A stretch of DNA of 35,188 nucleotides from Spongiibacteraceae bacterium (GTDB lineage: Bacteria > Pseudomonadota > Gammaproteobacteria > Pseudomonadales > CAMLJR01), in assembly GCA_036502545.1 (NCBI GenBank), contig DASXYH010000234.1:1-35188 (forward strand). Reading direction: 5' to 3'. The first letter of the stretch is position 1, and every line of letters begins with the position of its first letter. Position numbers and translations under genes: made by a program. A model generated the notes under the pieces. The model saw nothing but the letters and a program-made list of their open reading frames with translations, did not search any database and had not been told where the DNA came from. Positions 3,418 to 29,566 of this stretch are shown here, one piece after another.

Positions 3418-4491
3418 TTATTTTTTTGGATTGAATGCATTGACCGCACGAATCATCGGCAAATCGAGCTGCGTGACGATGCCGGGTTTCGCCGCTACAA
3501 CTAATGGCGCGGTATTCATGCAATTCATCGCCGTGCATACCAGGCCGAGCCGCGCCGAATCGCGGCCATCCGGTGCGCCGCAGGTGAACGTCAATTTCAA
3601 ATTGGGATCGCCTTCGATAATGACGTGATACGCCCACGGCTCGTCGAACGGCCAGTTCGGTTCGAGATCCTTACTCATTTTCCAGTACGTTTTAAAATCG
3701 ATAACGGTCTTACCGCCGACCTTGCCCATGTAATTGAAATTTTGTCCGGCAACATGATCCTTGCGTACGACGCCGGTTTTATTGCCCATATCGAGTATCA
3801 CTTCGATATCGTGTTGCGCCAGCGCGAACTCGTGGGTCTTTTCGTAACTCTCGATTTGCAGGCCGAGTCCTTGCGCTACCAATGCGATCGACTCGAAAAA
3901 AATCGTGCTCAGCACTTGCAGCAAACCGGGCGGATTTTTACGCGCCTCGTCGGCGGTCATATCGAAGCCGAGAATTTTCACCATGTCCCAGCTTTCGTTG
4001 ACCAATGACATGTCGACGATTTCATACACGGTAATTTTATCGATACGGCGCGACATGCCCGATAAAATCAGCGGCAAGCGATCGCCGGAAAATCCCGGAT
4101 GAATACCGGAGCCATGAAACGATACGCCGCCTTTTTTACAAGCGGCTTCGAGTTTGGCGGCATCGGCTTTATTGCTGACGGTGGTGAACCCCGACGGCGT
4201 GATGACATTTTTGCCGGCTTCGAGAATGCGACAGATTTCATCGACATTCGACAGCAGCGGCGCGTACTGCACGATATCGGCCTCAAGCGCGAGCACTTCA
4301 TCGATGTTGTTGCTCGCCTTGATACCGATCGGACCGATGCCGGCGATTTCGCCCGCATCCTTGCCGTGTTTTTCGGCGCTGTGCACATACACGCCAACTA
4401 ATTTAAATGCCGGATTTTGATGACACGTTAAAATATTGCATTTGCCGATGGCACCGGTCGCCCATTGAATAACGCGTAAAGGTTTAGTCAT
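3418..4491 (-). CDS. DapB-like / NAD(P)H-dependent amine-dehydrogenase-family oxidoreductase, paralogue 1
   Basis: N-terminal RVIQWATGAIGK dinucleotide-binding motif of the DapB_N type, followed by ...GKNVITPSG...HGSGIHPGFSGD... ATG at 4491 has a GAGG site upstream. It is clearly paralogous to 6674-7756, 19115-20230 and 20745-21821. Confidence 0.7.
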   Translation of the reverse strand: MTKPLRVIQWATGAIGKCNILTCHQNPAFKLVGVYVHSAEKHGKDAGEIAGIGPIGIKASNNIDEVLALEADIVQYAPLLSNVDEICRILEAGKNVITPSGFTTVSNKADAAKLEAACKKGGVSFHGSGIHPGFSGDRLPLILSGMSRRIDKITVYEIVDMSLVNESWDMVKILGFDMTADEARKNPPGLLQVLSTIFFESIALVAQGLGLQIESYEKTHEFALAQHDIEVILDMGNKTGVVRKDHVAGQNFNYMGKVGGKTVIDFKTYWKMSKDLEPNWPFDEPWAYHVIIEGDPNLKLTFTCGAPDGRDSARLGLVCTAMNCMNTAPLVVAAKPGIVTQLDLPMIRAVNAFNPKK

Positions 4492-4573
4492 TATTTTTGC
4501 CTCGTTCTGTATCGCGGTAACTGAATGATCGATAAAATCAGCGGCCCGGATCGACACGAACCGCCGCAAGAGG

Positions 4574-10216: not shown

Positions 10217-10960
10217 TCACACGCGCATGACGTGGCCACCATCGACGTTCAGAATTACACCGGTCACCCATCCTGCATCTTCCGATAACAGGAATGCCAG
10301 CGCCTTGCACAAATCGTCCGGCGTGCCCAGCCGCGCGATCGGTAAAGCCGCCACCATTTGCTGAATATATTCTTCGGGCACTTTATCGCGCAACGCTTTG
10401 GTGTCGGTCGGTCCCGGGGCGATCGCATTGACGCGTATGCCTTTCGGTCCCAATTCACGCGCCAGCACACAGGTGATGCCGTTGGTAGCCAGTTTCGTGA
10501 AGGAATAATAATCCATGCTCATCCATGCTGCAGTGGACGATTGGTTGACAATCGCACCGCCGCTCTTCATATAAGGCATTGCGGCGCGCGACATAACGAC
10601 GGAGCCAAGCATGTTCACGCTGATTACTTTATTCAAATAAGCCAGATCGACCGTGAGCAACGGATTGAATTCCAGATTGCCGAACAGCGCCGCGTTATTG
10701 ACAAGGTAGTCGATACCGCCCCACTCTTTGGCAACGGCCGCTGTCGCCGCTTTCGCCGATTCCTCGTTCGAGACATCGACTTTCACGAACAGGGCGGTAC
10801 CGCCCGCCTGCTTGATTTCCTGCACCACGCGTGCGCCCTGCGCTTCGTTGACATCGGCCACCGCAACTTTGCAGCCGCGCGCCGACATACCTTTAGCGTA
10901 CCCCTCACCGATGCCTTGGCCGGCACCGGTAATCAACACAACTTTTCCGGAAAAGCTCAT
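10217..10960 (-). CDS. SDR-family oxidoreductase (FabG-like)
   Basis: ITGAGQGIGEGYA, NNAA, YSFTK (YxxxK) and VTGVILNVDGG motifs. A ggaga RBS lies 7 nt before the ATG. Confidence 0.85.
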   Translation of the reverse strand: MSFSGKVVLITGAGQGIGEGYAKGMSARGCKVAVADVNEAQGARVVQEIKQAGGTALFVKVDVSNEESAKAATAAVAKEWGGIDYLVNNAALFGNLEFNPLLTVDLAYLNKVISVNMLGSVVMSRAAMPYMKSGGAIVNQSSTAAWMSMDYYSFTKLATNGITCVLARELGPKGIRVNAIAPGPTDTKALRDKVPEEYIQQMVAALPIARLGTPDDLCKALAFLLSEDAGWVTGVILNVDGGHVMRV

Positions 10961-11008: not shown

Positions 11009-11518
11009 TCAACCGTGCGCGATGCGCACATCCCGAACCAGATAAAGTCGGACCATCAACGCAGTAAAAATAAACAGCCATAAACCATTGCCGATAATGA
11101 CCGCCGTCAAGTCGGCGTGCGTTTCATCGATGCTGAGAATTTGCCAGGTCAGATAAAGGATCATCGAATAGGTCATCATTCCCGCCATAAAAGTGGCCAG
11201 GTTCCGGTACCAACCAAGGTGCGCTTGCGCACGGATAAAAATGATCAGCGAAAGCACGTAAAACCATCCGAACAGAAATACGTCAAACTCATTGACCAAT
11301 TGAATCCAGCGCGGTGCGTTGGCGTATATCGGTTCGGTTTGCAAGTAACCGAGCCAAGCCCGTCCGACCCAAGTCTGCGCGCATGGTCCATCGGCGCCCA
11401 GACTGAGGCCGTGCCAACCGCAATCGACGAAGTACAGAAACGCCGGCTCATAAAACAGTGCAATAAAGGTGGCGAATGCAAACAACAGTATTAGAAATCG
11501 ATCGTACCAACGCGCCAT
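11009..11518 (-). CDS. 4-TM membrane protein, EXPERA-like (EBP / TMEM97 sterol-isomerase fold), paralogue 1
   Basis: About 169 aa with four hydrophobic helices. Motifs FYEP...CGW, W.GYLQTEPIY, NEFDVFLFGWFYV and YSMILYLTW line up with EBP/TMEM97 blocks (LWKEYAKGDSRY, CELVFQLPFF, YGDVLYFLTE). ATG at 11518 follows ggggagg. Confidence 0.55.
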   Translation of the reverse strand: MARWYDRFLILLFAFATFIALFYEPAFLYFVDCGWHGLSLGADGPCAQTWVGRAWLGYLQTEPIYANAPRWIQLVNEFDVFLFGWFYVLSLIIFIRAQAHLGWYRNLATFMAGMMTYSMILYLTWQILSIDETHADLTAVIIGNGLWLFIFTALMVRLYLVRDVRIAHG

Positions 11519-11838: not shown

Positions 11839-12990
11839 ATGAGCGACAACTTAATGAAAAGCAGCGCGGCGACAATCCAGCGCAACCTGTTAACAGTACC
11901 CCGTCTTGCCGATGGTTCACCGCGTTTCGCGCGCGGCTGGCACATGGTAGGTTGGAGCGACGAATTCGAAACCGGCAAACCGGTGGCGCGCGATTATTTC
12001 GGCCAACGCCTCGCGCTGTTTCGCGGCGAAGACGGCAAAGTCCGCTGTGTGGAGGCGTTTTGTCCACACCTTGGCGCCGATCTTTCCGCCGGTACGGTCA
12101 TCGGTACCTCATTGCAGTGTCCATTCCACCATTGGCGCTTCGACGGTCAGGGCCAGTGCGTCGAAATCCCCTACTGCGACAAAATTCCGCCACGCGCAAA
12201 AACGCGCGCGTTTCCCACCCATGAAATCAACGATACCGTCATGATATGGTACGACCCCGAGCACGGCGAGCCCGAGTACGACATTCCCGCTTTGCAAGAA
12301 TTTCTGCCGAAGTCTGCAGCGGATGACAACGGCTGGACCAAGGGCTGGCACCGCTTCAAAATCACGATTAAAACCCATGCGCGCGAAGTTATGGAAAACG
12401 TGGTCGATAAAGGCCATTTGCTGCCGATTCACGGCTTCAAAGTCGACCAATGGCTGCCGGTATGGAATGGCCATATGTGCGGCGAATTGACTTGGGGCAC
12501 GCATACCCGTCTGGCGAAAGACGTCCAAGACGACAAACTGTACGTGCGCAGTATCAGCCACGGTCCTTCTTATCAATACACCTGGCAATCGCAGGACAGC
12601 AAGCAATTCGACAGCCTCATCCTGACCGCTTGGTGCCCAATCGATGAAGGCACGCTCGATTATTGGTTTGGCGTAATCGTGCGTGCAAACGGCGCGCATT
12701 TCACGCCGGAAATTATCGAGCAGGCCGCCGAGCGTTATTGCAAAGACTCATTCGATGCATTCGCCGAAGACGTATTTATCTGGGAACGTAAATTGTATCG
12801 CCCAGAGCCGGTATTGTGCGCAGGCGATGGTCCGGTAGCACAACTGCGCCGTTGGTATACGCAGTTTTATACCGATCGCACGCAGGTGAACAACGCAAGC
12901 TTCAATAACCACAACCAAAACTGGACAGTGGAAGATTTGCGCGACAATAAAGCCACGGTTCTCGCCGCGCAAAATAAATCGGCTGCTTGA
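11839..12990 (+). CDS. Rieske [2Fe-2S] non-heme-iron oxygenase, KshA-like (3-ketosteroid 9-alpha-hydroxylase oxygenase type)
   Basis: Rieske motif CPHLGADLSAGTVIGTSLQCPFHHW and mononuclear iron motif NVVDKGHLLPIH (DxxHxxxxH). The N-terminal RFARGWHMVG block is collinear with KshA. Confidence 0.8.
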   Translation: MSDNLMKSSAATIQRNLLTVPRLADGSPRFARGWHMVGWSDEFETGKPVARDYFGQRLALFRGEDGKVRCVEAFCPHLGADLSAGTVIGTSLQCPFHHWRFDGQGQCVEIPYCDKIPPRAKTRAFPTHEINDTVMIWYDPEHGEPEYDIPALQEFLPKSAADDNGWTKGWHRFKITIKTHAREVMENVVDKGHLLPIHGFKVDQWLPVWNGHMCGELTWGTHTRLAKDVQDDKLYVRSISHGPSYQYTWQSQDSKQFDSLILTAWCPIDEGTLDYWFGVIVRANGAHFTPEIIEQAAERYCKDSFDAFAEDVFIWERKLYRPEPVLCAGDGPVAQLRRWYTQFYTDRTQVNNASFNNHNQNWTVEDLRDNKATVLAAQNKSAA

Positions 12991-14104: not shown

Positions 14105-14713
14105 TTACTTTCCGTTCAGCATTGCGTCGAGCATTGTTTTGATGCGCTGCAAAAATTGCGGCGTGTTGTTGGTTTTCGCTTCGAATACGCTTTCGACGGT
14201 AAGGCCAGTCAAAAAGCAGTGCACGAACTCGAGCGTGTCCAGCACTTGGCGATCGGTGAGTTTGATGTCGGGAAAAATTTCACGCATCGTTTTGACGTGG
14301 CCGCGCGATTGGCGCTCCGTAATAATCGATTGCACGCTCACTTGACGACCGCGCGCAGCGAGCAGAATCTCCAGCGCGGCAAGATAAACATCGCTTTGAT
14401 AGTGCTTCCACATCAAATCGATAAAAGCTTCAATGCGTTCGCGCCGCGAGCCAATGCGCAAGTGCGCGCCATCCATCAGGCGCGTGTATTCGGCGTGCGA
14501 TAAATCTAATACCGCATCGAGAATTTCTTCTTTCGAGCCGAAGTGATGTTGCGCAGCACCCCAGGTAAAACCGGCTTGCTGCGCAATTTTGCTGGAACTG
14601 GCCGCCGCGAAACCGCCGTTGCGAATCAGAGAAATTGCCGCGCCGATGATTTTCTCGCGCGCGATTTTCGTTTTCATAGCCTGGCGGCCGAGCACAGGTT
14701 TTTCGTCGGTCAT
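14105..14713 (-). CDS. TetR/AcrR-family transcriptional regulator
   Basis: N-terminal HTH IIGAAISLIRNGGFAAASSSKIAQQAGFTWGAAQHHFGSKEEIL. ATG at 14713 has ggggag 6 nt upstream. Confidence 0.85.
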   Translation of the reverse strand: MTDEKPVLGRQAMKTKIAREKIIGAAISLIRNGGFAAASSSKIAQQAGFTWGAAQHHFGSKEEILDAVLDLSHAEYTRLMDGAHLRIGSRRERIEAFIDLMWKHYQSDVYLAALEILLAARGRQVSVQSIITERQSRGHVKTMREIFPDIKLTDRQVLDTLEFVHCFLTGLTVESVFEAKTNNTPQFLQRIKTMLDAMLNGK

Positions 14714-14790
14714 CTCACACTCCCCGGAATATTTGCAGAATACTAGAGCGAGCGCGAAGTTGGCCAGATTGCGGCGATACTTTTGGAAAA

Positions 14791-14813
14791 GGAGCGCGAG
14801 GCGCGCCATTCAC
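14791..14813 (-). terminator. Stem-loop downstream of the KstD-like gene (weak terminator or attenuator)
   Basis: gcgcgcca-ttcacat-tggcgcgc forms an 8-bp GC stem about 27 nt after the stop at 14840. On the minus strand it is followed only by a short ccttttcc tract. Confidence 0.35.
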
Positions 14814-14839: not shown

Positions 14840-16534
14840 TTAAGATGCGGAACCGCAAGCGTGTTCGGCGGCTAGAAAACCAAACGTCATCGCCGGACCC
14901 AGCGTTGCTCCGGCACCGGGATAATAGCGGCCCATAACCGACGCCGAACAGTTGCCGATTGCGTACAAACCGGGAATCGCATTGCCGCTTTGATCGACCA
15001 CCTGCGCATTCGGATTGGTTAGCAGGCCGCCCTTGGTGCCGATATCTCCGGGATAAACTTCGATCGCATAGAACGGCGCTTCAACCAGCGGTGCGAGACA
15101 CGGATTGGGCTTGATGCGCACATCGCCATAAATCAGATCGTAACTATTTTCGCCGCGTCGATAATGCTCGTCTTTGCCGGTCTGGGCGAATTGATTGAAT
15201 TGCTGCACGGTATCAGCCAGTCCGCGCGCCGGAATATTCAGCAGCTCCGCAAGATCGTCCAAGCTGTCGGCGCTTTTCAACAACTGTGTGCGAATATGGC
15301 CGGGCTGCAGCCAATTCAAATGCATACCACCGGGCAACAGCGGTCCAAATGGATAATCGCGTTTGTAACGGCTATCGAAAATCAGATACGTCGGCAGATT
15401 GCCGGGCTCGTACATAGCCTGCACGGCGGTGGTGTACGCAACCGATTCGTTGACGAAACGTTTGCCGAATTGATTGACCAGAATCGCCCCCGGCATCGAA
15501 CGCTCGGTGAACAGCGCGCGTGCGCGATCCTCGCCCTCCACGACAATGCTCGGCCCCCACCACGCTTCATCGAGCAACGATGTCGCTGCGCCGATCGCCT
15601 GCCCAGCCACCAGCATATCGCCGGTGTTATAAGGACTCGCGGCGGACCAGGTCGCGCTGGTCGGCGACGGCAAATAACGTTCGCGCAGCGCTTGGCTGTG
15701 CTCGAAACCGCCGCTACCGAGAATCACGCCGCGCTGCGCGCGAATTTGAATCGGTGTGCCGTTACGCAGCGCTTTGACGCCGACCACCGCGCCATTTTCA
15801 ACAATCAACTGCTGCGCCGGACACTGCAGCCAGATCGGCACATCGAATTTTTTCAGCGATTTGCGCAGACGGCCAATCAACGCGTTGCCCATCGTCAAAC
15901 GCCGCGAGCGCATCGATTTAAACCGCCATGGAATATCGGCAAAATATTCGAACGCGAGTTTCATCACCAGCTTGAACCAGCCCGGCGATTTACTCAGCAG
16001 GATTGCCCCTTCGATATTGCTGTAGCCCATTAAGCCGAGCACCCGTGTCTGGCGATGCGATTCCTGCATATTTAAAAAATCATCGCCGAGCTCGCGCGCA
16101 TCGTACGGCAGCGGATCGATCGAACGCCCACCGGGACGCGCGCCGGGCAATTGCTGGTAATAGTCGGAGTAATGTTCCATCGCCATGTATTCGACATCGC
16201 TGTTGCCGCACAGCCATTCGAGCATGCGACGGCCGTTGGTGACGAATGCTTCGACATTTTCGCGCGGCACATCTGAACCGGTTAGCGCGAGTAAATATTG
16301 CAGCGCGTCCTCGCGATTGTCCTCGATATTTACCGCGGGCATTAAATGGTTGCAAGGAATCCACAGACCGCCGCCCGAGGTCGCCGAAGTACCGCCGTAA
16401 TAACGGCTCTTTTCGATAACCAACACTTTCGCGCCGGTATGCGCGGCGCGCAATGCCGCGGTCAGTGCGCCGGCTCCGGAGCCGACGACAAGAATATCGA
16501 CGGTGTGATCCCAATTAATTTGCGATTGACTCAT
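14840..16534 (-). CDS. FAD-dependent oxidoreductase, 3-oxosteroid 1-dehydrogenase (KstD)-like
   Basis: DILVVGSGAGALTAA...EKSRYYGGTSATSGG at the N-terminus and GDIGTKGGLLT...LYAIGNCSAS...YPGAGATLG at the C-terminus. It is collinear along its full length with KstD enzymes. Confidence 0.8.
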   Translation of the reverse strand: MSQSQINWDHTVDILVVGSGAGALTAALRAAHTGAKVLVIEKSRYYGGTSATSGGGLWIPCNHLMPAVNIEDNREDALQYLLALTGSDVPRENVEAFVTNGRRMLEWLCGNSDVEYMAMEHYSDYYQQLPGARPGGRSIDPLPYDARELGDDFLNMQESHRQTRVLGLMGYSNIEGAILLSKSPGWFKLVMKLAFEYFADIPWRFKSMRSRRLTMGNALIGRLRKSLKKFDVPIWLQCPAQQLIVENGAVVGVKALRNGTPIQIRAQRGVILGSGGFEHSQALRERYLPSPTSATWSAASPYNTGDMLVAGQAIGAATSLLDEAWWGPSIVVEGEDRARALFTERSMPGAILVNQFGKRFVNESVAYTTAVQAMYEPGNLPTYLIFDSRYKRDYPFGPLLPGGMHLNWLQPGHIRTQLLKSADSLDDLAELLNIPARGLADTVQQFNQFAQTGKDEHYRRGENSYDLIYGDVRIKPNPCLAPLVEAPFYAIEVYPGDIGTKGGLLTNPNAQVVDQSGNAIPGLYAIGNCSASVMGRYYPGAGATLGPAMTFGFLAAEHACGSAS

Positions 16535-16634: not shown

Positions 16635-18620
16635 TTATTCGCCCAGCGTAAACGCGACTATCGCATCGCCTGGCGCGGTGCCGAGCGGACCGTGACCGCC
16701 GGCTGCGATTACCACGAATTGCTTGCCGTCGTTTTTAACCTGATAGGTCATCGGCGTCGCGTTGCCGGCAAATGGCAATTCGTAATGCCATAACTCTTCG
16801 CCGTTATCGGCATCGAATGCGCGAAAATATTTATCCATCGTAGCCGCAATAAATACTAAACCGCCTGCCGTTTGCATCGAGCCGCCCGAATTCGGCGTGC
16901 CCCAGTTCAACATTTTGCCGATCACCGGCGGCGCTAAACCATTTAAATTGCCGAGTGGTTTTTCCCACAGACGCGCGCCGGTTTTAAGATCGATAGCAAT
17001 AATTTTGCCCCACGGCGGCGGCACGCACGGTGTTTTAAGCGGTGAGAGATAAACGCCGCGCTGCGCAATGTACGGAGTGCCCAATTGCGGATTGATGCCG
17101 ACCAGATCGCCGCCTTCGGAGGCGGCACCGTCTTTCGGACGCGGCGCCAATTTAATAATGAATGGCACCACCTGCATGTTGAGCACCATTCGATTCTTGA
17201 TCGGATCGATCGATACCGATGCCCAGTTCACACCGCCGCCCAACCCCGGATATTCCAGCGTACCCTTGAACGAAGGCGGCGTGAATAAACCGCGGTATTC
17301 GAGCGTATCGAATTGCTCCTGGCATTTGTGTTTATCCCACGGCGTCAATCCCCACAGGTCATCGCGCGCAATCGTTTGCGGATGCACGGGAGCAGGCATG
17401 GTAGGAATCGGTTGCGTCGGCGAATTGCGCTCGCCGGGCACATCGGATTTTGGCACCGGACGCTCTTCGACCGGAAATAACGGCGCGCCGGTTTCGCGAT
17501 TCAACAAAAAAATATTGCCAACTTTGGTGGCCTGCACGAGCGCCGGCGTATCACCGATTTGATAAGTGACCGGCTGTGCGGCGACATCGTAATCCCACAG
17601 ATCGTGATGCACGGTTTGAAAATGCCAGCGCACGGCGCCGGTATCGGCATCCAATGCGACCGTCGAACTGCCGTAATAATCCATGTCACCGCGCTCTTTG
17701 CCGCGATAATGATCGGGCGCGGGATTACCGGTCGGCAGAAACACAAGATTGCGGGCCGGATCGGCAGACATCAAACCCCACACATTCGGCGTGCCGTGCG
17801 TCAACGTGGCACCCTGTTTCAGCTGTTCCGCAGTCACTGCCGGCATGCCGGGTGGCACCGGATCGAACACCCATTTCAGTTCGCCAGTGCGCGCATCGTA
17901 GGCGCGCACCGCACCGCCGGGTGCATCGATGCGCTGACCGTCTTTAATAAACGCACCGGTCAATACGACATTGTTAATCACCAGCGGCGGCGATGTTGGA
18001 TAGTATTCGCCGAGTTCGACTTTACCGAGACCATCGAGCAGATTGACCGCGCCGCCTTTGCCGAAATCGGCACAGGCTTTACCGGTTTTTGCATCGATCG
18101 AAAGCAAACGCGCATCGACTGTATTAACGAAAATACGATCTTTACAAACCTGTCCGGCAGCGGCTTGCGCATCGCGCCCCATTTGATTGTCACGATAGCC
18201 CGCTTGATTGTCACGATAGTAAGTGACGCCGCGGCAGGTCGGAGTGTAAACACCATTCAAATTGGTTTTCGGATCGAACGTCCATTTTTCATGGCCGGTT
18301 TCAGCATCGAGTGCAATCACGCGATTGTACGGAGTGCAAAAATACATGGTGCCATCGATAACAATCGGCGTCACTTGAAACGCGGTGGCGCCGTGTTCTT
18401 TATCGCCGGTTGAAAAATCGCCGTGATGATAAGTCCACGCCACGTGCAATTGTTTGACGTTGTTTTTATTGATCGAGGTCAATGCGGAAAAACGCTGACC
18501 GCCAATCGAACCGCCCACATAAGGCCATTCGTTCGGACCTCCCAATGCGGCGGATTCGGCGCCGGCAAAATCCACGGCAAATAGCGACAACAGAAAACAA
18601 ACGACACGCGCCAATTTCAT
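16635..18620 (-). CDS. PQQ-dependent dehydrogenase (glucose/quinate/shikimate family), secreted form with signal peptide
   Basis: N-terminal MKLARVVCFLLSLFAVDFAGA signal, then WTYHHGD...FQVTPIVIDGTMYFCTPYNRVIALDAETGHEKW and repeated W-motif propeller blades. A ggtggag RBS precedes the start. Confidence 0.8.
   Translation of the reverse strand: MKLARVVCFLLSLFAVDFAGAESAALGGPNEWPYVGGSIGGQRFSALTSINKNNVKQLHVAWTYHHGDFSTGDKEHGATAFQVTPIVIDGTMYFCTPYNRVIALDAETGHEKWTFDPKTNLNGVYTPTCRGVTYYRDNQAGYRDNQMGRDAQAAAGQVCKDRIFVNTVDARLLSIDAKTGKACADFGKGGAVNLLDGLGKVELGEYYPTSPPLVINNVVLTGAFIKDGQRIDAPGGAVRAYDARTGELKWVFDPVPPGMPAVTAEQLKQGATLTHGTPNVWGLMSADPARNLVFLPTGNPAPDHYRGKERGDMDYYGSSTVALDADTGAVRWHFQTVHHDLWDYDVAAQPVTYQIGDTPALVQATKVGNIFLLNRETGAPLFPVEERPVPKSDVPGERNSPTQPIPTMPAPVHPQTIARDDLWGLTPWDKHKCQEQFDTLEYRGLFTPPSFKGTLEYPGLGGGVNWASVSIDPIKNRMVLNMQVVPFIIKLAPRPKDGAASEGGDLVGINPQLGTPYIAQRGVYLSPLKTPCVPPPWGKIIAIDLKTGARLWEKPLGNLNGLAPPVIGKMLNWGTPNSGGSMQTAGGLVFIAATMDKYFRAFDADNGEELWHYELPFAGNATPMTYQVKNDGKQFVVIAAGGHGPLGTAPGDAIVAFTLGE
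18183..18224. repeat. 21-bp in-frame tandem duplication inside the PQQ dehydrogenase gene
   Basis: The units ttgattgtcacgatagcccgc and ttgattgtcacgatagtaagt share their first 16 nt. They encode YRDNQAG followed by YRDNQMG. Confidence 0.8.
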
Positions 18621-19114
18621 CGGACCACTCCACCCGGAAAATCATTGAGAGACTGCACAGCATGCGATCGGGCACAGGACTTTTGGCAACATATAATTCT
18701 GCGCAATATATTCGCCGCGATAACGAAAGCGCCTGCAGATTTATTATTGATCCTGTTTCAAGAATCCATCGGCAATTTATACTTTATTGCCACGCGATCG
18801 CATTGCACTGATACGCGGTATTACACCGTATATCGAAAGGTAACGCCCCAGATTGGGCCGCCGGCTAGCCTACCCGATTTACATTTTGCAGGCAATGTTT
18901 TGAGCGGGAGCCACGACATTACGATTCCGCAATGTCGGCGTGTTAGCCGTCGCCTATACAGGCAAAATATTGCGCAGGAAAAAGCGCTTTTTTTGCGCGT
19001 TTAGCCCAATAAATACCACGCTCCCGATGAGCCGATATGCGGCAAAAAAACATTTTACTCATAATGTATTTGCGCTAATATCCGGGCCCAATCGAACGTC
19101 CGGAAATAAATTCT

Positions 19115-20230
19115 ATGAGCAGACTTCGAATTATTCATTGCGGTACCGGTATTGCCGGCAAGCAAGCGCTGCAGGCAATTCTGACGAATAAAGCATTGGA
19201 ATTGGTCGGCCTGCTGGTGCACAGCGCCGATAGCGTCGGTCGCAACGCAGCCGACCTCGCCGGTTTATCCGATGTGCAAACTTCTGTAACCGCGACCAAC
19301 GATTTTCAGCAGATCGTCAAACTGCAAGCCGATGCCGTGTGTTACATGCTGCTGCTGCCGGATATCGAACAAATTTCCGCGCTGCTCGCTTCGGGAAAAA
19401 ACGTCGTCACCACCGCGGGACAAATTTACCCGGCGTGGCATTCGCAGGAAAATGCGCAGCACCTGCAACATGCGTGCGAACAGGGCAACAGTTCGTTTTA
19501 TGTCAGTGGTATCAATCCGGGCTGGGTGGATGAAATTCTGCCGCTGACGATGTCGGCGCTGTGTCGTCGCATCGAACAAATTCATATTCGCGAATATGCC
19601 GATTGCTCGAAATATCCGGCGCCGCACATTTTAAATGTGATGGGTTTTGGTTTTTCGCAGGCCGATATTCAAGCCGGCAAATTGCTCGACCTCGGCGTGA
19701 TGCGCGAATTTTTTCAGCAATCGATTGCGGCACTGGCACACGGACTCGAATTACAACTCGATGAAATTACCGAATCGCGCGATTTTGTTTTCTCGAAACA
19801 CGCGTACGACATCAAGGCCGGACATATTCCGCAGAATACGATTGCCGGTCAGCGCTGGCGCTGGGTCGGCATCGCCGATGGCAAAGAGCGCATCGTGCAG
19901 GAAACATTCTGGATCACCGCGTTCGATCTGGAACCGGGCTGGCCGCGCAGCGGTGAAATCGATAACGACACGCAATGGCAAGTGACGATCGAAGGTTCGC
20001 CGTCGCTGCGCTGTACTTTCGAACCGCGCCTTACTTTTACGGAAAGAGCATTCACTGACAGAGCTCTCAGTTTTGTGCCCGATTACAACCCGTCGGGATT
20101 GGCCACTGCGATGGCGGCGGTAAATAGTTTGATTCCGCTGTGCGAAGCGCCTCTCGATATAAAGAAAACAAGAGGGGGCTTACTGACCAGCGGCGATCTC
20201 GCGCTGCCGCATTGCCGGCAATTGGCGTAA
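19115..20230 (+). CDS. DapB-like / NAD(P)H-dependent amine-dehydrogenase-family oxidoreductase, paralogue 3
   Basis: Begins MSRLRIIHCGTGIAGK and continues ...GKNVVTTAG...SGINPGWVDE... Its stop TAA (20228-20230) overlaps the next ATG (TAATG). Confidence 0.7.
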   Translation: MSRLRIIHCGTGIAGKQALQAILTNKALELVGLLVHSADSVGRNAADLAGLSDVQTSVTATNDFQQIVKLQADAVCYMLLLPDIEQISALLASGKNVVTTAGQIYPAWHSQENAQHLQHACEQGNSSFYVSGINPGWVDEILPLTMSALCRRIEQIHIREYADCSKYPAPHILNVMGFGFSQADIQAGKLLDLGVMREFFQQSIAALAHGLELQLDEITESRDFVFSKHAYDIKAGHIPQNTIAGQRWRWVGIADGKERIVQETFWITAFDLEPGWPRSGEIDNDTQWQVTIEGSPSLRCTFEPRLTFTERAFTDRALSFVPDYNPSGLATAMAAVNSLIPLCEAPLDIKKTRGGLLTSGDLALPHCRQLA

Positions 20231-20748
20231 TGAACAAACTCGCGCAATCACCCTATCCGGGCTGGGATAAATTTTTTCTCGTTTGTTTCGTGTTATTTAT
20301 TTTGGTGGCGTTCATTCACGAACCGCTGTTTTATATTTATTGCGGTTGGGATGGATTGCACAACAACACTTGCACCAACGCGACGATCGCCAATCTCTGG
20401 ATCGACTACGCAAGATACGATCCAGTGTATTTCGATATGCCGCTGTGGATGGCGCTGATGATCGGTTTCGATTCGTTTTTATTGAGTCCGTTCTACGTGT
20501 ATTCGGTATATGCACTGTGGGTCGGTAAGGCCGACACACCGCTATATCGCACCATCGCGTACGTTGTTTGCGGCGGCTTGATCTACGCGATGATTTTGTA
20601 CATCACCTGGGAAGTCATGACCGCGGAAAAATATCACGCGGCGTTAATGCCGGTGATCGGTTACAACATTCCGTGGGGCATCGTTCCACTCTTATTTGTT
20701 TTCAGATTGTATTTCGGCGCGAAAAAACTTGGAGAAAACTTGCGATGA
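20230..20748 (+). CDS. 4-TM membrane protein, EXPERA-like (EBP / TMEM97 fold), paralogue 2
   Basis: FIHEPLFYIYCGW, LWIDYARYDPVY, GFDSFLLSPFYVYSVYAL and YAMILYITWE, with four predicted TM helices. It is about one-third identical by eye to 11009-11518. The start overlaps the upstream stop and the stop overlaps the downstream start. Confidence 0.55.
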   Translation: MNKLAQSPYPGWDKFFLVCFVLFILVAFIHEPLFYIYCGWDGLHNNTCTNATIANLWIDYARYDPVYFDMPLWMALMIGFDSFLLSPFYVYSVYALWVGKADTPLYRTIAYVVCGGLIYAMILYITWEVMTAEKYHAALMPVIGYNIPWGIVPLLFVFRLYFGAKKLGENLR

Positions 20749-21821
20749 AAAAAATTCGAGTCATCCAATACGCCACCGGCGGTGTCGGCCAGCAATCGAT
20801 TAAAGCGTTTGTCGGTCATCCGCAACTCGAATTGGTCGGCCTCGTCGTGCATAGCAAAGACAAAGTCGGCAAAGACGCCGGTGAGCTCGCCGGTATCGCG
20901 CCGATCGGTATTAAAGCCACCGACGACGTTGCAGCGATGATCGCGATGCCAGCCGATTGCGTGTTGTTCGTCGCGCTGTGGCCCGATGTCGATTTGATCT
21001 GCCGCATTCTTGAATCCGGCAAAAATGTTGTCACCACTTCGGGACTTTTATATCCGAAATTTTTCGGCCCCGAACTCGTGAATAAACTCGAAGCCGCTTG
21101 CAAAAAAGGCGGCACATCGGTGCACGGCACCGGTATTAATCCCGGCTTCAGTGGCGAAGTACTGCCATTAACTATGTCGGTATTGAATCGTCGTATCGAG
21201 CACATCATGGTGCGCGAATTTGCCGATTACGCGACTTACAACTCGCCCGAACTGAATCACGCACTGCTCGGTTTCGGCCGCAAGCTCGACGATGTGCAAG
21301 CGAACAAACATCCGAATTTCGATTTGGCGATGCAGTTTTTCCATCAATCGATTGCAATGGTCGCGGACGGTCTCGGCGTCGCACTCGATCGCATCGAGCA
21401 AACTGTCGAGTACGGTATCACCAAAAGTGGCACCACGATCGCATCGGGCGCCATTCCGCCCGGCACGATCGGCGGCATCAAAGTTCTTTTTTCCGGTATT
21501 GTCGGCGGCAAACCGATGATCGAAATTCTGCTCACCTGGCTCGCGACTTACGACAACGGTCCGGGTTGGCCGACTCCGTCCGATAAAGGCGATCATACGC
21601 ACTGGAGCGTGACGATCGAAGGCGAACCTTCATTGCGTTGCAAATTCGAACAAGCCAGCTCGTTTAAAGAAAGTGCTCCGGCGCAAGCGCATACCGAACC
21701 GGCGATGATCTGCACGGCAATGCATGCGGTGAACGCGATTTCGTATGTGTGTGCCGCCGATCCGGGTATCAAAACTTTTATCGATCTGCCGCTGATGGCG
21801 GGACGCTTCACGATGCGCTAA
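20745..21821 (+). CDS. DapB-like / NAD(P)H-dependent amine-dehydrogenase-family oxidoreductase, paralogue 4
   Basis: Begins MKKIRVIQYATGGVGQ and continues ...GKNVVTTSG...KLEAACKKGGTSVHGTGINPGFSGE. Its ATG at 20745 overlaps the TGA of the EXPERA-like gene (ATGA). Confidence 0.7.
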   Translation: MKKIRVIQYATGGVGQQSIKAFVGHPQLELVGLVVHSKDKVGKDAGELAGIAPIGIKATDDVAAMIAMPADCVLFVALWPDVDLICRILESGKNVVTTSGLLYPKFFGPELVNKLEAACKKGGTSVHGTGINPGFSGEVLPLTMSVLNRRIEHIMVREFADYATYNSPELNHALLGFGRKLDDVQANKHPNFDLAMQFFHQSIAMVADGLGVALDRIEQTVEYGITKSGTTIASGAIPPGTIGGIKVLFSGIVGGKPMIEILLTWLATYDNGPGWPTPSDKGDHTHWSVTIEGEPSLRCKFEQASSFKESAPAQAHTEPAMICTAMHAVNAISYVCAADPGIKTFIDLPLMAGRFTMR

Positions 21822-21836
21822 TAATCTTTAGCCGAT

Positions 21837-21864
21837 AAATCCCCGCGTGCGCATGCGGGGATTT
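21837..21864. terminator. Bidirectional rho-independent terminator
   Basis: aaatccccgc-gtgcgcat-gcggggattt forms a 10-bp stem between the convergent gene ends at 21821 and 21863. Confidence 0.75.
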
Positions 21865-22507
21865 ATTTATCCAGATGTTCGTAACTTTTGTTTTTGGCGC
21901 CGATTAATTTTCGATAGCGTACCCATGTCACAACTCCAGAAGCAGCCACTGCGGCAAGCAATAAACCCACAAAAGTTTCTGCGCCCTTGCCGGGATCGCT
22001 GAAATGATTGATCGCCATTGCCGCCGCACCTGTGACCGCCGCCAGCGCCAGCAACAACGGCAGTGCATTGTTGCGCTGGTATTCGCTCTCGCGCGGCTGC
22101 AATAACAATTGAAAGTTGCGCTGCTGTTCGAGCTCGCCATCGCAACATTCGCACCCGGTGGAAAAACTGGCGATTTCCTCGACCGAGCGTATCGGAAAGC
22201 CAAAGGTGCCGGTTCCGAGTTTACCGATGTTGATGCCGATACCGATTTCGCACGCCACGAAATACTTAATTTCAAATTCGTATTTAACCGCCCGCGCGCA
22301 ATCGTCCTGCGCGCACGGCAATAATTTTGCGCGATGCACGAACGCATCGATTTTATCTTCGTAACTGATAATAAAACCGAACCGCGTGAAGCCGACCATT
22401 CTGTTGCCGACAATGGCGGGTTTATTGAGACAATCGTATTGAACGGTCGACTCGACCGTCACGCCAAATGTATTCTTCGGTTTATGCGTAAAATTTTTTA
22501 CGGCCAT
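21863..22507 (-). CDS. Hypothetical Cys-rich protein with C-terminal double-TM anchor (no family recognised)
   Basis: ATG at 22507 follows gggaga. There is a roughly 150-aa soluble N-terminal domain with several Cys (including CECC), then two hydrophobic helices (LPLLLALAAVTGAAAMAI and FVGLLLAAVAASGVVTWV). Confidence 0.5.
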   Translation of the reverse strand: MAVKNFTHKPKNTFGVTVESTVQYDCLNKPAIVGNRMVGFTRFGFIISYEDKIDAFVHRAKLLPCAQDDCARAVKYEFEIKYFVACEIGIGINIGKLGTGTFGFPIRSVEEIASFSTGCECCDGELEQQRNFQLLLQPRESEYQRNNALPLLLALAAVTGAAAMAINHFSDPGKGAETFVGLLLAAVAASGVVTWVRYRKLIGAKNKSYEHLDK

Positions 22508-22710
22508 AACGTCTCCCTGTGAATGGGCGCTCAGGCTTAGCTTTCTCGATCGCCCTGCGTGCACAATCGACCCTTGCGCATATAGTAGCCGTGATAACTT
22601 TGTCTCGGCAATTTCAACCGTTTATACTGCGCACTTTCCCTATGGGTGCGATCTAGCTTCGGATATGGCCGAAGCCGCTATCGCAGCCTCATCGTTAAAG
22701 GTAATGACTG

Positions 22711-26527: not shown

Positions 26528-27067
26528 ATGCGAATTGGCCTGATTTCACGCATTCTGCTGTCCACGCTGGCGATAATCCCGCTGACTGTCCGCGGCGCTA
26601 GCGACGATCTGTCACGCGAGTACCGCATTAAAGCGGCTTATCTGTACAACCTGAGTAAATTCATCACCTGGCCCGATGAAGAAAACATGGCCAAAGATAT
26701 GCCGATCACCTTGTGTGTATACGGCTACAACCCATTCGAAACCTATCTCGAAAAATTGCAGGATCGACAGATCCGCGGCCGCGCAATCGCGGTGCGCTAT
26801 GTAGGCGAGCACGATTCCGTCGATGGTTGTCAGCTGCTGTTTATTTCGCAACACAACACGACCGAGCCCAAGCTGCTCAACGCGCCGCCGCCGTATCCAC
26901 CGATATTAACCGTCAGCGACGATCAGGATTTTCTCAGCCGCGGCGGCTTGGTGACCCTGGTTACTGTCAGCAATAACGTGCAGCTCGATATCAATCTCAC
27001 TCGGGCCAAGGCGGCCGGCTTCAGCGTCAGCGCCAATCTGCTCGAAATCGCGCATAGGATTCAGTAA
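26528..27067 (+). CDS. yfiR: YfiR-family (DUF4154) periplasmic regulator
   Basis: Signal peptide followed by the hallmark IKAAYLYNLSKFITWP motif. A gagg RBS precedes the start. It sits immediately upstream of a diguanylate-cyclase-type gene, as in yfiRN loci. Confidence 0.75.
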   Translation: MRIGLISRILLSTLAIIPLTVRGASDDLSREYRIKAAYLYNLSKFITWPDEENMAKDMPITLCVYGYNPFETYLEKLQDRQIRGRAIAVRYVGEHDSVDGCQLLFISQHNTTEPKLLNAPPPYPPILTVSDDQDFLSRGGLVTLVTVSNNVQLDINLTRAKAAGFSVSANLLEIAHRIQ

Positions 27068-27070
27068 AAG

Positions 27071-29566
27071 ATGAACGCCGAGCGTGCGCCAAGCAAAAAA
27101 CCGCGTCAATGGTCGATGCGCCTGCATAACTGGTCGATCGGCAGCAAGCTGATCCTGTTATCGCTTGCGACCAGCTTGATTGGTCTGCTCGCCGCGATCA
27201 CTGCCATCGCCGCGTACGATCAATACAGCTTGCGCTCGGTTTTGCGCGAAGAGTTCAGCGTGCTCGCCAACGTTATCGCCAACCGCAGCAGCGCCGCCGT
27301 GGTATTCGAGGATGAGGCATTAGCGCAAAACAACTTGAGCGCATTGCAGTATCGCAGCAGCGTGACGCTCGGCTGTATTTATCGCACCACCAATTCGGAC
27401 GGCGCGGAAAAGCCCAACAGTCCGGTTGTGCTCGCCACTTTTCACAGCAATGGCGAGCACGAATGCCCCGAGGTGAAAACTCCCGCGCAACAACAAATCA
27501 ATATCGGCCAGCGCTATCTGGAGGTGTTGCAGCCAATCGTACTCGACGATGCCACTGTCGGCGTGCTGTATCTGCAGGCATCGCTCGATGAAACCTACAA
27601 CCGTCTGCAGCACAAACTGCTGATCATGATTCCGGTCGTCATTTTTGCGGCCGCCATTGCGGTGCTGATCGGCACGCTGCTGTCCCGCCATATTTCGCAC
27701 CCGCTGAAAATGCTCGGCAAGGCTGCGGCACTGGTAGCGGAGCACGACAATTATTCGATTCGCGCCGATAAATTCAGCGAGGACGAAGTGGGACAAGTGG
27801 TCGATTCGTTCAACCATATGCTGTCGGTCATCGAGCGCGAAAATGCGCACCTGCGCGAGAGCGAGGAAAAATTCCGCCTCATCAGCGAATCGTCGAAGGT
27901 TGGTATTTTTCAACTCGATCGCCACGGTAATTGTATTTACTCGAACGAAGAAATGTCGGCTATCTCCGGGCTCGATGGCGAAACGCTGCTACAACAAAAC
28001 TGGCTGCACGTGGTGCATCCCGACGACAAGCGCCGCATCACCGATCAGTTCCAACTGTTAGTGCAAAAAAATGCACCGCATATCAATCTCGATTGTTGCC
28101 TGATGCTGCCGGACGGCGCGCTTAAATGGGTAACCGGCGATGTCGCGCCGATGTTCGATGCCGATCAGCAGCAGATCGGTTTTCTCGGCACGCTATCGGA
28201 TATTTCCGAGCTCAAGGAAGCCTACGATCAACTCGAACAAATGGCGTTTTACGATACGCTGACGGGGCTCGCCAATCGTCGTTTATTCCGCAATCGCCTC
28301 GAACACATGCTCAGCAATATTCCGCGCAGCGGTGCCGGCGTCGCCTTGATTCTGATCGATCTCGATCATTTCAAACACGTCAACGATTCGATGGGGCATG
28401 ATTCCGGCGATTCACTGCTCACTGTGGTTTCCGAACGCCTGAAACACTGCGTGCGTTTCACAGATACCGTGGCGCGTCTCGGCGGCGACGAATTCGCCGT
28501 CATTCTGCCGAACGTGCCGGACACGCTGACCGCTTCGGCCATCGCCGAAAAAATCATGCAGGCACTGAGTAAACCGGTATTGCTCGGCGATCAGGAAATT
28601 ACCATTAGCGGCAGCATGGGCATTTCGATGGCGCCTGAGGATAGCAATACGGCGGAAGTGCTGATCAAAAACGCCGACCTCGCGCTGTATAAAGCAAAAG
28701 ATGAAGGCCGCAATAATTTCAAATTCTTCACCACCGAAATGAATACATTATTGGTGCGGCATTTGAATCTGGTGCAACAACTGCGTCAGGCCATCGATAA
28801 TCAATCGTTTCTGTTGCAATACCAACCACAGATCGATTTGCTCAGCGGTCAATTGGTCGGCTTCGAAGCATTGGTGCGCTGGCAGCAAAAAGATCGCGGC
28901 ATGGTGAGCCCGATGGAATTCATTCCGGTCGCGGAAGAGACCGGCTTGATTATTCCGCTCGGCCGCTGGATTTTACGCACCGCGTGTCAGCAGATGCGCG
29001 CACTGGTCGATGCCAAGCTCGTCAATAATCGCGCCGTGATGGCGGTGAATTTATCGGTCAAGCAATTCGAAGATATGCAGTTGATCAAATTTATCGGTGA
29101 AACGCTGATCGAATTCGGTTTGCGTCCGGCACAGCTTGAGCTCGAACTGACCGAAAGCGTGCTGATGGAAAATATCGAAGATACCGTCGAAGCGCTCAAC
29201 AATTTAAAAGCGCTCGGCGTCGGTCTTTCGATCGATGATTTCGGCACCGGCTATTCGTCGCTGAGTTATTTGAAACGGCTACCGGTGAATGTGGTAAAAG
29301 TCGATCGCTCGTTCGTAATGGACATTCCCCACGATATCGAAGATATGGAAATTACGGCGGCGGTAATCGCGATGGCGCACAAGCTGCGTTATAAAGTCGT
29401 CGCCGAAGGTATCGAGACCGATGAGCAGTACAAATTCCTGCGCGAATCCGGTTGCGATTATGGTCAGGGTTATTTCTTCAGCCCGCCGTTGTCACCCGAT
29501 GCGCTGGTCGATTTCTGCCGTCATTATCAAGCCGAGCTCGAAAGTGAAATGAACAAGGGCCGCTAG
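27071..29566 (+). CDS. Membrane sensor with CHASE8-like periplasmic domain, HAMP, PAS, GGDEF and EAL domains (c-di-GMP turnover)
   Basis: Two TM segments flank a roughly 150-aa periplasmic domain. HAMP is marked by HPLKMLG...FNHMLSVIE and PAS by EEKFRLISESS. The GGDEF motif is intact (RLGGDEFAVIL) with an RxxD I-site (RFTD) 5 aa upstream. The EAL motifs are intact (GFEALVRW, DDFGTGYSS, KVDRSF). Confidence 0.9.
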   Translation: MNAERAPSKKPRQWSMRLHNWSIGSKLILLSLATSLIGLLAAITAIAAYDQYSLRSVLREEFSVLANVIANRSSAAVVFEDEALAQNNLSALQYRSSVTLGCIYRTTNSDGAEKPNSPVVLATFHSNGEHECPEVKTPAQQQINIGQRYLEVLQPIVLDDATVGVLYLQASLDETYNRLQHKLLIMIPVVIFAAAIAVLIGTLLSRHISHPLKMLGKAAALVAEHDNYSIRADKFSEDEVGQVVDSFNHMLSVIERENAHLRESEEKFRLISESSKVGIFQLDRHGNCIYSNEEMSAISGLDGETLLQQNWLHVVHPDDKRRITDQFQLLVQKNAPHINLDCCLMLPDGALKWVTGDVAPMFDADQQQIGFLGTLSDISELKEAYDQLEQMAFYDTLTGLANRRLFRNRLEHMLSNIPRSGAGVALILIDLDHFKHVNDSMGHDSGDSLLTVVSERLKHCVRFTDTVARLGGDEFAVILPNVPDTLTASAIAEKIMQALSKPVLLGDQEITISGSMGISMAPEDSNTAEVLIKNADLALYKAKDEGRNNFKFFTTEMNTLLVRHLNLVQQLRQAIDNQSFLLQYQPQIDLLSGQLVGFEALVRWQQKDRGMVSPMEFIPVAEETGLIIPLGRWILRTACQQMRALVDAKLVNNRAVMAVNLSVKQFEDMQLIKFIGETLIEFGLRPAQLELELTESVLMENIEDTVEALNNLKALGVGLSIDDFGTGYSSLSYLKRLPVNVVKVDRSFVMDIPHDIEDMEITAAVIAMAHKLRYKVVAEGIETDEQYKFLRESGCDYGQGYFFSPPLSPDALVDFCRHYQAELESEMNKGR

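Follow-up and report, generated by a model that had tools for sequence, protein, structure and literature searches.

A conserved gene triad with an EXPERA-fold membrane protein between two paired oxidoreductases in a steroid-type gene island

The DNA analyzed here (the window) is the 35,188-nucleotide contig DASXYH010000234.1 of assembly GCA_036502545.1, assigned to a Spongiibacteraceae bacterium. Its subject is a triad of + strand open reading frames (ORFs), A, X, and B, which the original prediction described as two DapB-like dehydrogenases flanking an EXPERA-like protein with four transmembrane (TM) helices, all joined by overlapping stop and start codons. The ORF map and a reading of the sequence place the three ORFs at the predicted coordinates with exact overlaps. 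The triad and its flanking signals are as follows:

19115-20230, + strand: ORF A, 371 aa
20230-20748, + strand: ORF X, 172 aa, four-TM EXPERA-fold membrane protein (EBP/TMEM97-like, new 'CGW' subfamily)
20745-21821, + strand: ORF B, 358 aa
21834-21867, + strand: putative terminator hairpin, a 15-bp GC-rich stem followed by UUUAUUUAU
18621-19114, no strand: divergent intergenic region, presumed promoter/regulatory, 494 nt between a pyrroloquinoline quinone (PQQ) dehydrogenase gene and ORF A

At the A/X junction, TAATG (20228-20232) joins the TAA of A (20228-20230) to the ATG of X (20230-20232) with one base in common; at the X/B junction, ATGA (20745-20748), the ATG of B (20745-20747) overlaps the TGA of X (20746-20748), and four bases are common. 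Both predicted overlaps are thus present in the sequence. Alternative upstream starts occur for X (GTG 20140, TTG 20212) and for B (TTG 20568, GTG 20673). The ATG starts are favored over them, since the N-termini of 25 X homologs lie no more than a few residues from the Met of X, the Rossmann strand beta-1 runs from residue 3-5 of A and B in every aligned ortholog, and a GGAG lies 11-14 nt 5' of the B ATG; the overlapping starts are therefore supported as the real ones. The original prediction derived co-translation and fixed stoichiometry from these junctions; the overlaps and the conserved gene order described below support co-expression, whereas fixed stoichiometry is a conjecture.

The hairpin 3' of B has a calculated folding energy of -23.8 kcal/mol (z = -4.8, with 0 of 200 shuffles as stable) and a U-rich tail; a scan for consensus terminators missed it, its T-run having 4 T rather than 5. 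It likely closes the three-gene operon and is common to the ORF that converges on the triad (21863-22564, - strand, 233 aa). This ORF, with a hydrophobic C-terminal segment, belongs to no family of Pfam or NCBIfam and is missing from all of the related loci. In the 494-nt region 5' of A, we found two palindromes, both weak, and one sigma-70-like site (18683-18712), which is no more than in shuffled sequences. The KstR-type operator TnnAACnnGTTnnA has 0 matches in the window, and no regulatory link is drawn. Given the hairpin after B and the divergent gap before A, the triad looks like a self-contained three-gene operon. A recent horizontal island was considered and found to be unsupported, the GC content being 0.51-0.52 at the triad and about 0.53 in the window.

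The order A-X-B is kept in all nine independent loci, which come from Solimonas, Nevskia, and related metagenome-assembled genomes (MAGs) and whose proteins are 60-83% identical to those of the window. In each of the nine, an A-type ortholog (62-75% identical) lies 5' of X and a B-type ortholog (70-83%) lies 3' of it. In eight of these loci, there are overlaps of 1, 4, or 8 nt at both junctions; the sole locus with a gap between X and B is L002 (10516-10688), where 171 nt separate the two genes and B starts with GTG. The other neighbors are shuffled among the nine loci. The recurrence of the triad in nine diverged loci is not due to chance, and the conservation in related genomes on which the original prediction depended is borne out. 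Comparison of gene orders indicates that the A/X/B partnership is specific and conserved in shuffled surroundings.

X belongs to a small family: among 5.8 billion proteins, a word-indexed search gave 38 clusters at an identity of at least 60%, and a full hidden Markov model scan of 1.84 billion representatives gave 116 proteins at E <= 1e-3. One genome each of 185,579 species yielded five loci (three from Nevskia, one from Solimonas, and one from a 'Salinisphaerales' MAG), and the complete genome of the cultured Solimonas sp. K1W22B-7 (CP031704) likewise encodes X. B-type proteins of at least 66% identity are about as numerous as the X family, in keeping with a one-to-one partnership. No EXPERA gene neighbors the next relatives of B (48-58% identity), which lie among genes for PQQ dehydrogenase, KstD-family flavoprotein, luciferase-like and Baeyer-Villiger-type monooxygenases, short-chain dehydrogenases/reductases (SDRs), and Rieske proteins.

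The assignment of X to the EXPERA/EBP family, made in the original prediction, is upheld by several searches. Pfam PF05241 matches X with E 5.5e-6 and 27.1 bits against a gathering cut-off of 25.7, over profile positions 3-112 of 113, and the same precomputed match is found in most X homologs, with relatives at 32-37 bits. A single-sequence phmmer search of X against the PDB gave no match, and no NCBIfam model matches X; with a profile built from the 25 X homologs, human EBP ranks first in the PDB (E 0.023). An AlphaFold2 model built on the same 25-homolog alignment without templates (pLDDT 91.6, pTM 0.85) has long helices at 10-38, 72-98, 104-135, and 148-171, in agreement with the four TM helices that had been predicted. 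The top three Foldseek matches of this model in the PDB are human EBP (8W0R and 6OHT) and bovine sigma-2/TMEM97 (7M93), with TM-scores of 0.67-0.73 and a probability of 1.00; the next match has a TM-score of 0.29, and everything beyond the top three is noise (E > 3, TM-score < 0.45). The AlphaFold2 weights are older than both crystal structures, so the match of the model does not reflect memorization. By profile and predicted structure, X thus proves to be a genuine four-helix inner-membrane protein of the EXPERA fold. The four sequence blocks singled out in the original prediction are all present in X and contain most of the invariant columns of the family.

For residue-level comparison, X was aligned by hhalign with human EBP and TMEM97 sequences; the EBP sequence agrees with the PDB chain segment, and that of TMEM97 is provisional. 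The alignment with EBP (E 4e-4, identity about 20-24%) begins at EBP residue 57 and pairs E31, W57, Y60, D64, Y67, N146, and W149 of X with E80, W101, Y104, D108, Y111, N193, and W196. Alanine scanning identified 11 determinants of EBP activity, with the acids at 80 and 108 being superfamily-wide (PMC4263179); X keeps seven of these 11, and the residues aligned with the two acids, E31 and D64, are invariant in the 25 homologs. In the EBP structure, E80 is the proposed base, W196 stabilizes the carbocation, and N193 together with E122 holds the ligand amine (PMC6549186). Alignment with the provisional TMEM97 sequence is weaker (E 4e-3), with TM1 outside it, and pairs D64 with D56, D81 with E73 in the same register before a conserved Pro, and W149 with Y150. 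The acidic residues noted in the original prediction at the DP motif and in TM2 accordingly have counterparts in EBP D108/TMEM97 D56 and in TMEM97 E73, respectively, the TMEM97 sequence being the provisional one.

All the pocket residues, E31, W57, Y60, D64, Y67, N146, W149, and D81, are invariant in the 25 bacterial homologs, as are H30, E128, R159, and the loop cysteines C38 and C48. The predicted polar pocket would be formed by His30/Glu31 of TM1, Trp57/Tyr60/Asp64/Tyr67 of a loop helix, Asp81 of TM2, Glu128 of TM3, and Asn146/Trp149 of TM4. Positively charged residues are concentrated at the N-terminus, in the C-tail, and in loop 99-107, and loop 39-71, which contains both invariant cysteines, is net acidic. 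From this charge pattern, we infer an N-in/C-in topology in which the pocket, together with the W-x-x-Y-A...DP helix, would lie in the periplasmic half, and the predicted orientation of the pocket would mirror the luminal orientation of EBP. Two motifs, DTPxxR in a cytoplasmic loop (Asp102-Thr-Pro-x-x-Arg107) and the N-terminal SPYP (SPYPxWD), are invariant or nearly so in triad-type X and absent from a second EXPERA paralog of the window, X2, and from eukaryotic relatives. This restriction to triad-type X is why we propose them as the surface on which A and B may dock.

A and B each combine a DapB_N Rossmann domain with a DAP_DH_C domain in Pfam and are 41% identical to each other. A matches DAP_DH_C at 5.7e-9 and, in the PDB, 7XDU and AmDH4; B matches DAP_DH_C at 2.8e-13, DapB_N at 4e-7, and AmDH4 6G1H at 5e-21, or at 3e-38 over the full length when the family profile is used. 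The A/B family profile aligns in full length with AmDH4 (6G1H/6G1M) and 7XDU (E 1e-36 to 1e-38); its alignments with the native amine dehydrogenases 6IAQ, 6IAU, 7QZL, and 7R09 are weaker. These matches identify A and B, at the level of homology, as two paralogs with the native amine dehydrogenase/2,4-diaminopentanoate dehydrogenase fold, both of them soluble NAD(P)-binding oxidoreductases. Both begin directly with the Rossmann strand and have no signal peptide, which places them in the cytoplasm. The NCBIfam models Ord (NF040740; 97.6 bits for A and 125.9 for B, cut-off 400) and DapB (TIGR00036; 21.7 and 36.3 bits for the pair, cut-off 122) are far from being reached, and on this ground a true 2,4-diaminopentanoate dehydrogenase or DapB function was rejected. 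It should be noted that A of the window has two short insertions missing from all six aligned orthologs, about five residues in 'TFTERAFTDRAL' (approximately 20036-20050) and seven residues, 'PLDIKKT', near the C-terminus (approximately 20150-20170).

The column of the catalytic Glu (P3, E102 of AmDH4) is occupied in all pairwise and profile alignments by the Gly of 'TTAG' in A and of 'TTSG' in B. A 2024 survey of the family found that members without this Glu (group G5) are inactive in reductive amination and described their activity as divergent; it judged genomic context uninformative on the physiology of the family and assigned no physiological role (PMC11164908). Since the catalytic Glu is lacking in both proteins, reductive amination by A and B is unlikely, and an amine dehydrogenase function was rejected. 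The placement of A and B in the amine dehydrogenase superfamily, put forward in the original prediction, is thus supported by Pfam and PDB profile matches, whereas the amination of a keto-sterol suggested along with it is not. It is more likely that A and B are alcohol/ketone or ene oxidoreductases.

The triad lies among genes of a steroid type, and the window contains further paralogs of its members:

16635-18620, - strand: secreted PQQ-dependent dehydrogenase of the glucose/quinate/shikimate type, divergent from the triad (Pfam PQQ 3e-228)
14840-16534, - strand: homolog of AcmB/KstD-type 3-ketosteroid delta-1-dehydrogenase (PDB 7P18)
14105-14809, - strand: TetR-family regulator (Pfam TetR_N), also in L002, L004, L009, and L011
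13636-14064, + strand: CMD-family protein; a CMD gene also lies beside the triad in L001 and L004
13112-13408, - strand: SCP2 sterol-transfer-family protein (Pfam SCP2 8.9e-19)
11839-12990, + strand: KshA-like Rieske oxygenase (Pfam KshA_C 1.7e-49, and Rieske)
11009-11518, - strand: second EXPERA paralog X2, 169 aa with the start at ATG 11518, preceded by a GGAGG Shine-Dalgarno sequence
10217-10960, - strand: SDR 3' of X2, with 73-76% orthologs in L004, L007, and L011
8909-10168, - strand: cytochrome P450, with a 59% ortholog beside the triad in L009
6674-7780, - strand: third DAPDH-like paralog C (Pfam DAP_DH_C 5e-15)
3418-4569, - strand: fourth DAPDH-like paralog D (Pfam DAP_DH_C 1.8e-13)

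The PQQ dehydrogenase adjoins the triad in five loci (the window, L002, L004, L009, and L011); it covers only positions 154-782 of the NCBIfam model PQQ_membr_DH, and a signal-peptide-like N-terminus replaces the membrane domain. The AcmB/KstD-like protein aligns over its full length with the 3-oxosteroid 1-dehydrogenase 7P18 (7.5e-165, 553 bits), which we take to be AcmB of Sterolibacterium denitrificans; it scores 598 bits with NCBIfam PRK12844 against a cut-off of 789 and has orthologs in L002, L009, and L011. The KshA-like protein matches KshA structures with 175-211 bits (best 4QDC, 2.3e-61, 211 bits), and orthologs at 70% identity lie beside the triad in L001, L004, and L010; with the NCBIfam model of the sterol C4-methyl oxidase SdmA, it scores 69 bits against a cut-off of 600. 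The window also encodes several SDRs, a SnoaL-like protein, luciferase-like monooxygenases, and an acyl-CoA dehydrogenase. The KstD-like, KshA-like, SCP2, and P450 neighbors named in the original prediction are therefore all present, and gene content shows the triad to lie in a steroid-type catabolic island of a Nevskiales-like gammaproteobacterium. Hydrocarboniphaga, of the Nevskiales, is a predicted steroid degrader (PMC4810484).

X2, C, and D do not appear in the original prediction. X2, detected only through tblastn cross-matches, is 32% identical to X (BLASTP, E 1e-28), has no Pfam family, and gave nothing in an exact-sequence look-up. Relative to X, it has Gln for Glu128 and Glu for the Asp of the DP motif. 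X2 is the first gene of an X2-SDR-P450 string that diverges from the KshA-like gene, and its orthologs lie in L007 and L011. C and D, also of the DapB_N/DAP_DH_C type, are interleaved with SDR and SnoaL-like genes; the P3 column reads 'TTAA' in C and 'TPSG' in D, which brings to four the members in the window with Gly or Ala in place of Glu. On the basis of X2 and the two additional DapB-like paralogs, the triad can be viewed as one unit of a larger, paralog-rich island. Elsewhere, both EXPERA paralogs are linked: L007 (416-11592) has 11 co-directional genes in the order X2, aldehyde dehydrogenase, SDR, SDR, HIBADH-like, SDR, FAD enzyme, KshA-like, A, X, and B, and L011 has the string A-X-B-KshA-like-X2.

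More distant bacterial EXPERA proteins form family P0046 of Pseudomonadales-type MAGs, whose genes lie beside those of KstD-family flavoproteins without a DAPDH-like gene. In two Pseudomonadales-type MAG loci, L012 (5024-5868) and L013 (8001-8845), an X2-like gene overlaps by 1 nt with an unknown 107-aa ORF and is flanked by two KstD-family FAD genes, with no DAPDH-like partner. After the Nevskiales orthologs, the best matches of the X profile are eukaryotic (P0040-P0065, loci L017-L020; E 1e-35 to 1e-17), often with MORN or GST fusions or low-complexity tails. Two of them are EukProt sequences, from the foraminiferan Bolivina argentea and the choanoflagellate Didymoeca costata, and the contigs of these relatives carry genes for RHD3-type GTPase, Myb, and phosducin or eukaryote-like sparse gene calls. 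This pattern of relationships suggests an uncharacterized protist EXPERA subfamily ('CGW') and makes an exchange of EXPERA genes between eukaryotes and bacteria likely. Two other regions of the window are unrelated to the triad: at 26528-29566 (+ strand), a YfiR-like gene precedes one for a CHASE8-HAMP-PAS-GGDEF-EAL protein (cyclic-di-GMP signaling), and at 31857-34445 (- strand), an MprF-type lysyl-phosphatidylglycerol synthase gene stands next to a CAAX-protease-like gene.

Overall, X is most likely a membrane sterol-binding or isomerizing subunit working with two cytoplasmic oxidoreductases. We tentatively favor a more definite version, which we regard as plausible and just short of probable, in which X is an EXPERA-fold unit performing EBP-type chemistry with A and B, encoded together with them in a conserved operon of a steroid-type island. 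X would draw a sterol-like polycyclic lipid from the bilayer and perform EBP-type acid-base chemistry on it, most likely a shift of a ring double bond through a carbocation or enol intermediate stabilized by Trp149. A and B would probably form a heterodimer held at the membrane through the loop Asp102-Thr-Pro-x-x-Arg107 and the N-terminal SPYPxWD, and they would carry out NAD(P)-linked alcohol/ketone or ene reductions on either side of the X step. The product would then pass to the AcmB/KstD-like dehydrogenase, KshA-like oxygenases, SDRs, and P450 encoded nearby.

Several observations weigh against EBP-type chemistry by X. His76 of EBP, the proposed proton donor, aligns with the invariant Ala27 of X, and Glu122 aligns with Ile78 and Thr125 with Asp81, so the EBP catalytic triad is not intact; Asp81 lies one helical turn beyond the position of Glu122, and His30 is near His76 in the alignment but off its column. 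Of the His76-Glu80-Glu122 network, Glu80 alone is kept, as E31; Asn193 and Trp196 of the last TM helix have equivalents in N146 and W149, both invariant, and the five TM helices of EBP, with an extra N-terminal one, are replaced by four in the 172 aa of X. X is not an EBP ortholog, given that His76 and Glu122 are not kept. As for the TMEM97-type pair Asp29/Asp56, D64 corresponds to D56 of the provisional sequence and the topology is alike; the alignment does not include TM1, and the nearest relatives of X form a separate clade. The alignments thus present X as neither an EBP nor a TMEM97 ortholog, with a polar pocket that looks intact. TMEM97 and TM6SF proteins have the same fold and acids but no proven enzymatic activity, so the fold and acids do not prove catalysis by X. 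The statistics for X are modest (27.1 bits against 25.7 in Pfam; Foldseek E 2e-3), and direct channeling is not obvious, the predicted pocket being on the periplasmic side and A and B being cytoplasmic without signal peptides. Bacterial operons often have overlaps of 1, 4, or 8 nt, which by themselves point to co-expression and not to a complex of proteins. The KstD-like and KshA-like genes fall below the NCBIfam equivalog cut-offs, and the window contains no ring-cleavage genes of the HsaC/TesB type, which makes the steroid link a strong hint rather than a demonstration.

The main rival explanation, which is possible if somewhat unlikely, is that X is non-enzymatic, a sterol- or lipid-binding anchor or substrate-delivery subunit that recruits A and B, with all the chemistry performed by these two. 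Such a role would agree with the loss of His76 and Glu122 at the aligned columns, with the resemblance of the TM2 and DP acids to E73 and D56 of the ligand-binding receptor TMEM97 (provisional sequence), with docking through the triad-specific cytoplasmic motifs DTPxxR and SPYP, and with the strict gene order and overlapping junctions. The invariance of seven EBP determinants, including the equivalents of E80, N193, and W196, nevertheless exceeds what a passive anchor needs, and four buried acids would be costly in the membrane unless used. In addition, X2 and the P0046 family occur without a DAPDH-like neighbor, which indicates an independent role of the EXPERA fold in these clusters. That A, X, and B are co-expressed but independent members of a pathway, their overlaps being ordinary operon compaction, is improbable: the order A-X-B is invariant in nine loci in which all other neighbors are shuffled, and A- and B-type orthologs of this identity level are seen only flanking X. 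What speaks for independence is the frequency of such overlaps, the 171 nt between X and B in L002, the lack of adjacency, in the window, between its second EXPERA gene and its two further DAPDH-like paralogs, and the B relatives without EXPERA in similar catabolic clusters.

Two further explanations concern the reaction itself. The module might be biosynthetic, modifying an endogenous sterol, hopanoid, or other polycyclic lipid, as the assignment of myxobacterial EBP homologs to sterol biosynthesis (PMC10152446) and the weak SdmA match of the KshA-like gene (69 against 600 bits) would allow. We consider this most improbable, because no squalene or oxidosqualene cyclase, squalene monooxygenase, or CYP51 is present in the window or in the related loci examined, the neighbors are catabolic (AcmB/KstD-like, KshA-like, acyl-CoA dehydrogenase, aldehyde dehydrogenase, luciferase-like monooxygenases, and TetR repressors), and the predicted degradation of steroids by Hydrocarboniphaga points the same way. 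It is scarcely credible that A or B, or both, aminate a keto-sterol made or presented by X. Their superfamily does include native amine dehydrogenases and 2,4-diaminopentanoate dehydrogenase, and one ortholog is labeled 'NAD(P)H-dependent amine dehydrogenase family protein' by NCBI; in comparison with AmDH4, MsmeAmDH, and CfusAmDH-type chains, however, the P3 Glu is a near-invariant Gly in A and B and Ala or Gly in C and D, the Glu-less group G5 is inactive in amination, the Ord scores are 98-126 bits against 400, and no aminotransferase or nitrogen-handling gene lies nearby. A bolder form of the favored reading, which we hold to be doubtful, is that A-X-B is a membrane complex in which X is a true sterol double-bond isomerase or carbocation catalyst coupled to A and B, that Nevskiales use it to degrade delta7/delta8 or otherwise awkwardly unsaturated sterols, and that the X gene came from a eukaryote. 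If true, a function would for the first time be assigned to a prokaryotic EXPERA protein, to the Glu-less branch of the amine dehydrogenases, and to the protist 'CGW' subfamily.

EXPERA proteins, among them EBP, TMEM97/sigma-2, and TM6SF1/2, are medically important. To our knowledge, the only proven reaction among them is that of EBP, and the members studied are all eukaryotic. On bacterial or prokaryotic EXPERA proteins, our literature search found just the 2014 founding paper, on eukaryotes, and annotation-level myxobacterial homologs of EBP. The operon described here, from a soil or freshwater bacterium, offers a small and tractable bacterial model of the EBP/sigma-2 fold, in which X is under clear selection for production together with two soluble enzymes. 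Through it, the Glu-less members of the native amine dehydrogenase family also gain their first informative genomic context, and it may fill a gap in bacterial sterol degradation. As the operon is present in the cultured Solimonas sp. K1W22B-7, with its complete genome, the idea is directly testable by genetics and biochemistry.

Among known systems, the EBP homologs of myxobacteria (Nannocystis; PMC10152446) are likewise bacterial EXPERA-family genes tied to sterols; by their description, they differ in being predicted EBP orthologs of a biosynthetic context with cyclase and CYP51, outside any DAPDH-like triad or catabolic island. A and B share their two-domain architecture with AmDH4 (6G1H), 7XDU, MsmeAmDH (6IAQ), and CfusAmDH (6IAU), with full-length alignment (E 3e-38), and, like group G5 (PMC11164908), they have no P3 Glu; unlike the surveyed family, they form a fixed pair of paralogs around a membrane protein in steroid-type clusters. 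The eukaryotic 'CGWEGL' EXPERA proteins, to which X is most closely related, share the CGW[DE]GL...C loop, E-P, D-P, the D/E of TM2, N-x-P-W, and the C-terminal Arg; they differ in having neither DTPxxR nor SPYP and no known DAPDH-like partner, and none of them is characterized.

TMEM97 (7M93; TMt 0.71) is, like X, an EXPERA protein with four TM helices and equals it in size; D56, E73, and Y150 of the provisional sequence correspond to D64, D81, and W149, D56 being held in a W-Y-A-x-x-DP motif. It differs in being a eukaryotic ER/lysosomal sterol-binding receptor without proven catalysis and in having no Cys-x9-Cys loop like that of X. Human EBP (6OHT, 8W0R) is alike in fold, as the top Foldseek and PDB profile match, in seven pocket equivalents, and in a pocket predicted for the non-cytoplasmic half. 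EBP has five TM helices, whereas X has four, with Ala and Ile at the positions of His76 and Glu122 and Asp at that of Thr125; and X, unlike EBP, is bacterial, stands in a catabolic context, and is translationally coupled to two soluble oxidoreductases.

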